Assembly (NCBI RefSeq): GCF_024298765.1
Contig: NZ_CP101210.1
From: Escherichia coli
GTDB taxonomy: Bacteria; Pseudomonadota; Gammaproteobacteria; Enterobacterales; Enterobacteriaceae
Direction: 5' to 3' (one strand)
DNA length: 64,000 nucleotides
Shown: one piece after another, positions 11,503 through 14,591 of the stretch
Layout of the letters: each line of letters opens with the position of its first letter
Position numbering within the stretch: position 1 is the first letter of the stretch
Notes under the pieces: generated by a model
The model's input: only the letters and a program-made list of their open reading frames with translations
What the model was told of the DNA's origin: nothing
Database searches by the model: none
Translations under genes and position numbers: made by a program

Positions 11503-12876
11503 TTATTTTAATAACCGCACCCGGCACGTTTTTCCTTTAATCTTCCCGCCCTGTAACTGTTTCCATGCTTTATGAGCAACAGCCTGACGCACCGCGACAT
11601 AGACATGCGCCGGATGCACGGCGATTTTGCCAATATCTGCGCCATCAAGCCCGATATCTCCTGTCAGCGCACCTAATACATCACCCGGGCGCATTTTGGC
11701 TTTTTTCCCGCCATCGATACATAACGTTGCCATTTCTGCTTCCAGCGGCACAATGGAACTATTAACTGGCGGCGTTTGCCAGTTAAGTTTTATCTGCAAC
11801 ATGTCAGAAATGATATTGGCCCGCTGTGCTTCTTCCGGGGCACAGAAACTGATCGCCAGACCGCTATTTCCTGCACGAGCTGTACGACCGATGCGATGTA
11901 CATGAACTTCAGGGTCCCACGCCAGCTCAAAGTTCACCACCAGCTCAAGCGATTTTATATCCAGACCACGCGCAGCAACATCAGTCGCGACCAGTACACG
12001 GGCGCTACCGTTAGCAAAACGTACCAGGGTCTGATCGCGATCGCGTTGCTCCAGATCGCCGTGTAACGACAATGCACTTTGCCCTACTTCATTCAGCGCG
12101 TCGCAGACAGACTGGCAATCTTTTTTGGTATTGCAAAACACCACGCAAGAGGATGGCTGATGCAAGCTTAATAACCGTTGCAACAGAGGAATTTTGCCTT
12201 TGCTGGATGTCTCATAAAATTGTTGTTCAATAGGTGGCAGAGCATCTGTTGAGTCAATTTCAATCGCTAAAGGATCGCGTTGCACTCTTCCGCTGATTGC
12301 GGCGATGGCTTCCGGCCAGGTTGCCGAAAACAGAAGCGTCTGTCGAGATGCTGGCGCAAAACGGATGACATCATCAATGGCATCGCTAAATCCCATATCC
12401 AGCATGCGGTCGGCCTCATCCATCACCAGCGTATTCAACGCATCCAGTGATACCGTGCCTTTTTGCAGATGATCCAGCATACGGCCCGGCGTTGCCACGA
12501 TAATATGCGGCGCATGTTGCAACGAATCACGCTGCATACCGAACGGTTGACCACCGCACAACGTCAAAATTTTGGTATTTGGCAGAAAACGCGCCAGCCG
12601 ACGCAATTCACCTGCCACCTGATCCGCCAGTTCACGCGTAGGACACAGCACTAAAGCCTGGGTTTGAAATAGCGACGCATCAATTTGCTGTAACAAGCCG
12701 AGGCCAAAAGCCGCCGTTTTGCCGCTGCCGGTTTTCGCCTGCACGCGAACATCTTTTCCGGCAAGGATCGTCGGAAGCGCGGCGGCCTGCACCGGCGTCA
12801 TGGTTAAATAACCCAACTCATTAAGGTTCGTGAGTTGGGCGGGAGGCAAAACATTCAGGGTAGAAAAAGCGGACAC
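11503..12876 (-). CDS. dbpA: ATP-dependent RNA helicase DbpA (DEAD-box, 23S rRNA-specific)
   Basis: 457-aa ORF; Walker A (GSGKT), DEAD box (VMDEAD), SAT and HRIGRTAR motifs all visible. Confidence 0.96.
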   Translation of the reverse strand: MSAFSTLNVLPPAQLTNLNELGYLTMTPVQAAALPTILAGKDVRVQAKTGSGKTAAFGLGLLQQIDASLFQTQALVLCPTRELADQVAGELRRLARFLPNTKILTLCGGQPFGMQRDSLQHAPHIIVATPGRMLDHLQKGTVSLDALNTLVMDEADRMLDMGFSDAIDDVIRFAPASRQTLLFSATWPEAIAAISGRVQRDPLAIEIDSTDALPPIEQQFYETSSKGKIPLLQRLLSLHQPSSCVVFCNTKKDCQSVCDALNEVGQSALSLHGDLEQRDRDQTLVRFANGSARVLVATDVAARGLDIKSLELVVNFELAWDPEVHVHRIGRTARAGNSGLAISFCAPEEAQRANIISDMLQIKLNWQTPPVNSSIVPLEAEMATLCIDGGKKAKMRPGDVLGALTGDIGLDGADIGKIAVHPAHVYVAVRQAVAHKAWKQLQGGKIKGKTCRVRLLK

Positions 12877-12905
12877 AATTTATTCTCGTGGTCATCGACG
12901 CAAAG

Positions 12906-13079
12906 TCAGCAGGCGCGTATCCTCGCAGATCTACGCTCACGATGCGACAATTTAATCGGTTCTTCGTCGGGTGGTGGGTCAGGCATGGGTTGCGGGCGAG
13001 GGATCGGATCGGGCACTGGAACAGGATCGCCAGGAATCGGTTCAGGGACAGGAATTTGCAAATAAATAAGTGTCGTCAT
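12906..13079 (-). CDS. Candidate proline-rich small protein (57 aa) between fnrS and dbpA
   Basis: Reverse-strand ORF MTTLIYLQIPVPEPIPGDPVPVPDPIPRPQPMPDPPPDEEPIKLSHRERRSARIRAC; GGAGG 5 nt upstream of the ATG; ends 30 nt before the dbpA start; may correspond to an annotated K-12 small protein but I cannot confirm the name. Confidence 0.4.
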   Translation of the reverse strand: MTTLIYLQIPVPEPIPGDPVPVPDPIPRPQPMPDPPPDEEPIKLSHRERRSARIRAC

Positions 13080-13136
13080 ATTTCCCTCCGGTCATTGGGT
13101 GGACTCTTAAAGGGTAGACGCTGACAAATAACAGGC

Positions 13137-13258
13137 AAAAAAAAGCCGACTCATCAAAGTCGGCGTCGTACGAATCAATTGTGCTATGCAGTAATTCAAA
13201 AAAGGAAGTAAGACAATATGGAGCGCAACGCCCATCGCTTGACGTTGCATTCACCTGC
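13137..13258 (-). ncRNA. fnrS: FnrS sRNA (FNR-activated, anaerobic)
   Basis: Reverse complement reads GCAGGTGAATGCAACGTCAAGCGATGGGCGTTGCGCTCCATATTGTCTTACTTCC...GACTTTGATGAGTCGGCTTTTTTTT with terminal hairpin and U tail; located between zntB and dbpA. Confidence 0.9.
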
Positions 13259-13293
13259 AAGAGAGATATTGCCCTGAATGGGTAGAGAGTTTA

Positions 13294-13307
13294 TTGACTT
13301 CGCTCAA
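13294..13307 (-). promoter_or_regulatory. FNR box centred about 42 bp upstream of the fnrS 5' end (class II activation position)
   Basis: TTGACttcgCTCAA approximates the FNR consensus TTGAT-N4-ATCAA with one half-site mismatch. Confidence 0.7.
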
Positions 13308-13353: not shown

Positions 13354-14358
<1,005 letters not shown>

Positions 14359-14591
14359 TTATTTTGTAGTCTAGCCTTCTGGCCCTGTTACGCAACATCT
14401 CATCACCCCATTACCCTGAAATGATTAATAAAATTCTGTCTAAATTGAATACAAAAAGCAAAATGCTTTTCCATATACAAACCGTGTGAAGTGTTAAATA
14501 GCGTCTATCATTATCAGAATTATCTGATCATATGACGTGGCTTTTTTGCGATCGGATAGCAACAAAAATTGATAAAAATAACGGGATCTCA

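Follow-up and report, generated by a model that had tools for sequence, protein, structure and literature searches.

The proline-rich reading frame between fnrS and dbpA in Escherichia coli is ynaL: protein-level selection on a Pro-X core and a C-terminal tail conserved as DNA

Consecutive proline codons, such as those in the mgtP/mgtL leaders, stall ribosomes without EF-P, and stalling of this kind is caused by PPP, DPP and PPD motifs and relieved by EF-P. Against this background, proline-rich frames that are located directly upstream of another gene can be considered either as coding for a peptide with a function of its own or as cis-acting leaders. Among the small proteins of E. coli K-12, VanOrsdel et al. 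2018 described YnaL, which is encoded between fnrS and dbpA, is identical over all 57 aa and in its K-12 coordinates to the protein analyzed here, and was detected by immunoblot with a chromosomal SPA tag (PMC6001520). In the same work, YnaL is an unassigned positive in tetracycline-inhibited ribosome profiling, that is, a member of a group of small proteins that mostly show high levels of the tagged protein, and the only statement on its role is a possible shared operon with dbpA (PMC6001520). Among the E. coli papers searched for a function of YnaL, this is the only one that mentions it.

We analyzed a 64,000-nt stretch of E. coli DNA (RefSeq assembly GCF_024298765.1, contig NZ_CP101210.1), referred to as the window throughout. 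A sequence-only reading of the window had singled out a 57-codon, proline-rich frame that opens with ATG, is preceded at a distance of 5 nt by GGAGG and lies between fnrS and dbpA. All these features were confirmed, and the translation is the same (MTTLIYLQIPVPEPIPGDPVPVPDPIPRPQPMPDPPPDEEPIKLSHRERRSARIRAC, with 16 Pro among the 57 residues; Table 1). The frame had also been said to end 30 nt before dbpA; the adjacency holds but the exact figure does not, the gap from the stop codon to the GTG of dbpA (12876) being 29 nt.

Table 1. Features of the fnrS-ynaL-dbpA region, in window coordinates
Feature	Coordinates	Strand	Evidence or remark
fnrS sRNA and intrinsic terminator (13164-13145 plus U-run)	13137..13258	-	57 nt upstream of the ynaL ATG; Rfam RF01796, 134.8 bits, 13141-13258, minus strand
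Shine-Dalgarno GGAGG	13085..13089	-	GGAG(G)-type SD in nearly all 56 orthologues; followed by 5 nt (GAAAT) and the ynaL ATG
ynaL CDS, 57 codons + TGA	12906..13079	-	ATG at 13079-13077, TGA at 12908-12906; ORF list of the window; RefSeq annotation, Pfam PF23677, identical sequence in PMC6001520
Variable N-terminal segment, residues 2-15	13035..13076	-	dN/dS 0.25, saturated dS
Pro-X core, residues 16-40, PGDPVPVPDPIPRPQPMPDPPPDEE	12960..13034	-	dN/dS 0.078; 3-periodic diversity; predicted extended PPII-like rod
PPP, residues 35-37 in DPPPD	12969..12977	-	read from the sequence
Invariant block A, CCGATTAAATTGTCGCATCG, codons PIKLSH	12940..12959	-	dS 0.09; putative -35/UP or activator position of the dbpA promoter
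Invariant block B, AGATCTGCGAGGATACGCGCC, codons RSARIRA	12912..12932	-	dS 0.01; proposed extended -10 and GC-rich discriminator
Invariant CGAGA, weak SD-like element of dbpA	12886..12890	-	conservation across loci
dbpA, GTG start	11503..12876	-	ORF list, annotation
Gly-rich mirror ORF	12835..13065	+	76 aa, TTG start; CCN read antisense as GGN

The frame is ynaL (K-12 b4743), a known, annotated and experimentally detected gene and not a new one. A megablast search with positions 12800-13300 matched 5,392 of the 5,426 complete E. coli genomes, and 29 of the 30 annotations among the matches listed read 'ynaL: proline-rich small protein YnaL' or 'protein YnaL'. The RefSeq CDS WP_001296046.1 of a 100%-identical genome has the same ends and the same distance of 29 nt to dbpA; the counterpart in K-12 MG1655 is b4743 at 1409308-1409481. 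The protein matches the Pfam family PF23677 ('Protein YnaL-like') from end to end, its 57 residues aligning with all 57 positions of the profile at 136.9 bits (cutoff 27; E=2.1e-40). Membership in the YnaL family is indicated jointly by this full-length HMM match, by sequence identity with b4743 and by same-strand synteny with the fnrS terminator and dbpA, and the same-strand order fnrS>ynaL>dbpA is found in all 56 orthologous loci considered below. Comparison with the annotated small proteins of K-12, a check that had been named in the sequence-only reading, thus settles the identity of the frame, and the proposal that it encodes a genuine small protein is borne out by the RefSeq and Pfam annotation, the published detection and the coding selection described below.

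In one of the matching records, NZ_CP087578.1 (E. coli OSUCMP42NDM), the contiguous match covers just the 52% of the query nearest dbpA, from query base 243, and begins inside ynaL at about codon 7; a second place is matched elsewhere in the record, and a 'hypothetical protein' is annotated in place of ynaL. In this strain, ynaL is probably interrupted by an insertion or a rearrangement. The window contains a second tiny annotated upstream ORF, the 15-codon RefSeq 'protein YnaN' (K-12 b4773) at about 14351-14398 on the minus strand, 13 nt upstream of zntB. As to the transcription of ynaL, no sigma70-like promoter was found on the minus strand at 13090-13136, between the fnrS terminator and the ynaL SD, an interval that includes the moderately conserved CAGCGTCTACCCTTTAAGAG; read-through of the fnrS terminator is one option.

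For the evolutionary analysis, we fetched about 80 Enterobacterales dbpA loci, one genome per species, with the DbpA N-terminus as the query because this choice avoids selecting on the ynaL ORF itself. In 56 of these loci, dbpA is preceded by an intact YnaL-like ORF that starts with ATG behind a GGAG(G) SD, namely in Escherichia, Citrobacter, Salmonella, Enterobacter, Lelliottia, Leclercia, Klebsiella, Raoultella, Kosakonia, Superficieibacter, Pseudocitrobacter, Pseudenterobacter and Shimwellia; among the dbpA loci compared, the ORF is absent from Kluyvera, Siccibacter, Mangrovibacter, Enterobacillus and Morganellaceae. The small-protein gene ynaL is restricted to Enterobacteriaceae. More than 12 genera retain the ORF, its ATG and its SD, and substitutions follow a clean 3-periodic pattern, which is far beyond chance. 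Frame-disrupting indels in close relatives, which had been put forward as the observation that would speak against coding, were looked for in the 56-sequence alignment, and all the indels there are in frame.

The nucleotide-diversity profile of the region is sharply partitioned: fnrS is invariant, the ynaL N-terminus is free to vary and the core varies at every third base. In residues 2-15, diversity is high at all codon positions, and in other genera this segment is often hydrophobic. For the core, residues 16-40, the Nei-Gojobori estimates are dS of 1.32 and dN of 0.10, and its invariant Pro columns use all four Pro codons. Conservation extends to non-Pro residues, including D24, D34, R28, Q30, M32, D38 and E39-E40, and the PPP column holds P in 51 of the 56 species and S or L (giving PSP or PLP) in the remaining 5. 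Given the dN/dS of 0.078 at a dS of 1.32 and the exclusively in-frame indels, ynaL is under protein-level selection, in agreement with the outcome expected for a genuine gene in the sequence-only reading, and this purifying selection is confined to the acidic Pro-X core of about 25 residues.

Within species, the YnaL alleles of E. coli and Salmonella range from 42 to 70 aa, Pro-X units having been gained or lost in frame. This length polymorphism was seen in E. coli (P0001, P0112 and L002) and in Salmonella (P0053, P0103 and P0105), with an 11-codon duplication (DPVPVPDPIPR) and in-frame deletions of 11 and 15 codons as examples. Tandem Repeats Finder detected no array in ynaL, such that a tandem-repeat origin is unsupported even though in-frame length variants exist. 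Three rare singleton alleles (P0007, P0041 and P0058) have a frameshifted or replaced tail. In Klebsiella michiganensis DSM 25444 (L037) and Leclercia adecarboxylata NCTC13032 (L062), ynaL is frameshifted, upstream of position 1501 of the locus; in L062 the dbpA match is shortened as well, and assembly indel errors are possible.

Considering that roughly one third of the ORF, the tail described below, is conserved only as DNA, that Kluyvera lacks the gene and that the frame is broken in L037 and L062, one could envisage an ORF without any coding selection, translated pervasively or accidentally and conserved solely through overlapping DNA or RNA signals. This possibility is very improbable: against it stand the excess of synonymous over nonsynonymous change in the core and its use of four Pro codons, the conserved ATG and SD and the experimental detection of the protein, and it is effectively refuted by the in-frame indels, the 3-periodicity and the core dN/dS.

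The dN/dS values cannot separate ynaL from the Gly-rich mirror frame on the plus strand because the wobble positions of the two coincide; the choice between them was made instead by the conservation of start, stop and SD. In this strain the mirror ORF spans 76 codons, and it has a dN/dS of 0.13, a low value that is inherited from ynaL through the shared wobble positions. Neither a start nor an SD nor the ends of this frame are conserved: the boundaries are different in each genus, the open segment contains no start codon in 11 species and there is an internal stop in Salmonella (L063). Furthermore, the published tag sat on the ynaL frame and yielded protein (PMC6001520). The chance that this ORF is a real gene is practically nil, and its earlier dismissal as an artefact holds good, CCN codons being read antisense as GGN.

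The C-terminal part of YnaL evolves in an entirely different mode. Blocks A and B are invariant at all three codon positions, and the 8-nt stretch between them varies freely. The dS is 0.09 for the codons of block A, 0.01 for those of block B and 1.06 for the three codons in between, compared with 1.32 for the core; for the tail codons at a dS of 0.01, dN/dS is 1 or more. A hundredfold drop in synonymous change is beyond what selection on the protein can bring about; the constraint on the tail acts at the DNA level. In the ynaL frame, block B reads AGA-TCT-GCG-AGG-ATA-CGC-GCC and so includes AGA, AGG and AUA, three of the rarest E. coli codons, as well as a conserved GATC (AGATCT).

In 9 of the 56 species (the E. 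cloacae group, Kosakonia and others), a premature stop precedes RSARIRAC, and the block DNA beyond it is still invariant. In these truncated loci (L016, L020, L029, L035, L040, L050, L051, L056 and L057), a TAG or TAA lies in the 8-nt linker, YnaL ends in ...PIKLSHR or ...PIKLSR with loss of the basic tail, and the gap from the stop to dbpA is 57-63 nt. Five Kluyvera loci (L041, L043, L044, L047 and L048) lack ynaL altogether, with no SD, ATG or Pro region; there, at about 1360-1500 of the locus, the fnrS terminator is followed by some 30 nt and then by block A, and blocks A and B are both still invariant. Three Kluyvera loci contain a 14-codon remnant frame, MSH.PARSARIRAC followed by a stop, which is opened by an ATG arising within block A and is probably coincidental.

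Thus, the last 17 or so codons of ynaL overlap two DNA blocks that are invariant whether or not they are translated. The basic tail that had drawn attention in the sequence-only reading is present in the sequence, but it does not stand as a protein feature under selection, given its dS of 0.01 and its truncation in 9 of 56 species; it is a by-product of the dbpA-proximal DNA.

We consider it somewhat probable that blocks A and B are the dbpA promoter. This reading of the sequence is preferred because the layout of the region (20 conserved nt, 8 variable, 21 conserved, about 20 variable, SD, start) matches that of a promoter and because outgroups place the dbpA promoter in this position. In each of the outgroups without the blocks, a sigma70 scan, whose weights and scores are heuristic only, found a good sigma70-like promoter with the -10 ending 34-42 nt before dbpA: ACGACA-17-TATCAT in Morganellaceae, TACAAT in Erwinia and others, and ATGACC-17-TG-C-TAGCAT in Siccibacter. 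The Siccibacter sequence TCTGCTAGCATACGCG is recognisably homologous to TCTGCGAGGATACGCG of block B and occupies the same place. TG-C-GAGGAT is found at -51..-43 from the dbpA start in 62 of 64 loci, and block B combines the TG at -15/-14, A-11 and T-7 of an extended -10 in the range of 30-45 nt upstream of the start codon. In the proposed arrangement, the TG at 12927-12926 and the GAGGAT at 12924-12919 would form the extended -10, ACGCGCC would be the GC-rich discriminator, and block A would occupy the -35/UP or activator position; the ynaL frame would then read through the dbpA promoter until reaching a stop.

DbpA is present at fewer than 1000 copies per cell (PMC2248767), an abundance that fits a promoter of low strength combined with a GTG start and a weak SD. 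In this strain, dbpA starts with GTG-TCC (MS...; window positions 12874-12876), and at almost all other loci with GTG-ACC (MT...). Synonymous variation is suppressed also over the first 15 or so nt of dbpA, as is usual for initiation regions.

The resemblance of the putative promoter to the consensus is poor, with heuristic scores of 1.4 for GAGGAT and 0.4 for the -35 TCGCAT, and on the opposite strand TATCCT reaches 4.6 by the same heuristic measure as against 1.4 for GAGGAT. Accordingly, the blocks might represent a nucleotide-level element of another kind: an antisense promoter (TATCCT, plus strand), a transcription-factor site, or a linear RNA motif, the last within a long dbpA 5' UTR transcribed from a TAAATT -10 or from upstream of ynaL. 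The conservation of TAAATT in block A follows the T-A-w-w-w-T pattern of a -10, which makes it an alternative candidate, and block B includes, besides the conserved GATC, a GCG-AGGAUA-CGC mini-hairpin with a GGA loop. Such alternatives appear doubtful, considering that the antisense -35 is unconserved (26 hexamers, with a background score) and the sense -35/UP position is the invariant block A, that the motif is single-copy in E. coli, that no CsrA CLIP-seq peak falls on dbpA, and that the Siccibacter variant breaks the mini-hairpin and yet makes a strong sense promoter in the same place.

Several more specific candidates were rejected. For the 3' end of ynaL and the leader of dbpA, a structured RNA is ruled out: Rfam gave no match at E<=10, RNAalifold over 24 genera returned -3.04 kcal/mol with 8 pairs and 0 compensatory changes, and the E. 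coli sequence folds no better than its shuffles (z = -0.02). A repeated genomic motif is rejected by the finding that 5392 E. coli genomes carry the 57-nt block in one copy only, and a CsrA-binding GGA hairpin by the lack of a CLIP-seq peak on dbpA together with unchanged dbpA in a csrA mutant. On inspection only, sigma54, sigmaE, sigma32, sigma28, MerR-type long-spacer, CRP and FNR sites do not fit; the GG-N10-GC spacing is present in the blocks, but the GC is unconserved, and there is no AAC -35. The blocks also contain a UACGCG hexamer that is shared with 23S rRNA 3' of hairpin 92; mimicry of 23S rRNA through this hexamer was judged a chance resemblance.

Two practical implications follow for work on this locus. 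The basic tail of YnaL is unfit for inferring a function such as RNA binding, being encoded by promoter-like DNA shared with dbpA. Moreover, tagging or deleting the 3' end of ynaL probably perturbs the expression of dbpA too, a point to consider in the interpretation of ynaL mutants and of the SPA-tagged strain. The question of function is thereby narrowed to the 25-residue acidic Pro-X core.

AlphaFold2 prediction with the family alignment produced no helices or strands (pTM 0.22) and a pLDDT of about 90 for residues 21-40, so that the core is predicted to form an extended rod of the polyproline-II type with no globular fold; no relatives of YnaL among solved structures (PDB) were found at E<=1. 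Most plausibly, YnaL acts in trans as a short disordered interaction peptide of the PPII type. The alternative is a cis-acting polyproline leader (uORF), in which stalling at DPPPD, set by the availability of EF-P or prolyl-tRNA, would control read-through transcription into dbpA or dbpA translation. Several features are compatible with a leader: in every genome carrying ynaL, the gene strictly adjoins dbpA on its upstream side; the PPP motif is kept in 51 of 56 species; the dbpA GTG with its weak SD lies just 29 nt past the ynaL stop; and, like that of many leader peptides, the N-terminus is free of constraint. An attenuator would be expected to have a conserved alternative RNA structure or terminator before dbpA, and none exists between the stall site and dbpA. 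The gap from the ynaL stop to the dbpA start varies from 14 to 63 nt across loci, PSP or PLP replaces PPP in 5 species, and Kluyvera keeps dbpA and both blocks without ynaL, such that the earlier suggestion of a proline-rich leader coupled to dbpA translation is not supported. Furthermore, the likely dbpA promoter is located within ynaL beyond the stall site, and the non-Pro residues over the 25 core positions are conserved (dN/dS 0.078) beyond the needs of a stall motif; these residues are more in keeping with a specific binding surface than with a stall sequence alone. The profiling-positive group that includes YnaL shows mostly high tagged levels (PMC6001520), whereas DbpA is below western detection (PMC2248767). 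From the selection on individual residues and the detectability of the tagged protein, we favor the trans-acting PPII peptide, to which we assign about an even chance, over the cis-acting leader, which we consider unlikely.

Taken together, the explanation that accounts best for the observations, and that we regard as probable, is that this locus is the known, translated ynaL, with selection on the protein limited to the core, a PPII peptide acting in trans and a tail that coincides with the dbpA promoter. In view of the stalling established for polyproline motifs, YnaL synthesis is probably EF-P dependent owing to DPPPD. Only the strict synteny suggests a link to DbpA or to 50S biogenesis; it is a long shot that YnaL is devoted to the 23S-rRNA helicase DbpA, or to late 50S assembly, as a partner or regulator. 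If it were true, YnaL would be a PPII peptide docking on DbpA or the ribosome, or else an EF-P-dependent polyproline 'translation-capacity sensor' tuning dbpA read-through, encoded by a gene wedged against the dbpA promoter such that one 50-nt stretch serves as both promoter and coding sequence.

Comparison with described systems helps to place YnaL. Like the Salmonella mgtP/mgtL leaders and the nascent-chain arrest peptides SecM and TnaC, ynaL is a short ORF directly upstream of another gene and contains consecutive Pro codons; unlike them, it has no conserved downstream structure or terminator and lies at a variable distance from dbpA, and, in a further departure from leaders of the mgtP/mgtL type, the blocks upstream of dbpA persist in Kluyvera, where ynaL is absent. 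The polyproline region of TonB (PF16031) similarly alternates Pro-X with acidic residues, and an extended PPII rod is expected for both. The TonB-like character noted in the sequence-only reading stands as regards composition but not as regards homology: the matches are compositional and well below threshold (20.8 bits against a cutoff of 315 for NF008084, and 11 bits against 33 for PF16031, TonB_N), YnaL has neither the N-terminal membrane anchor nor the C-terminal TonB domain, and its 57 aa contain no further domains. A TonB-like linker was therefore rejected. The proline-rich antimicrobial peptides (PrAMPs) oncocin, apidaecin and Bac7 are, like YnaL, short, PRP-containing, extended and Pro-rich, and the resemblance can be followed in the sequence (apidaecin ...IPQPRPPHPRL, YnaL ...PIPRPQPMPDPPP). 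PrAMPs are strongly cationic, whereas YnaL is endogenous and cytoplasmic, with 8 acidic and 7 basic residues, a net charge of about -1 and an acidic core (D18, D24, D34, D38, E39 and E40). The closest described system is YnaL itself (b4743, PF23677, PMC6001520), with which the frame shares the same 57-aa sequence and the same fnrS>ynaL>dbpA position and is the identical gene; what is added here to the published description is that protein-level selection is limited to residues 16-40 and that conservation of the C-terminal 'RSARIRAC' is at the DNA level.
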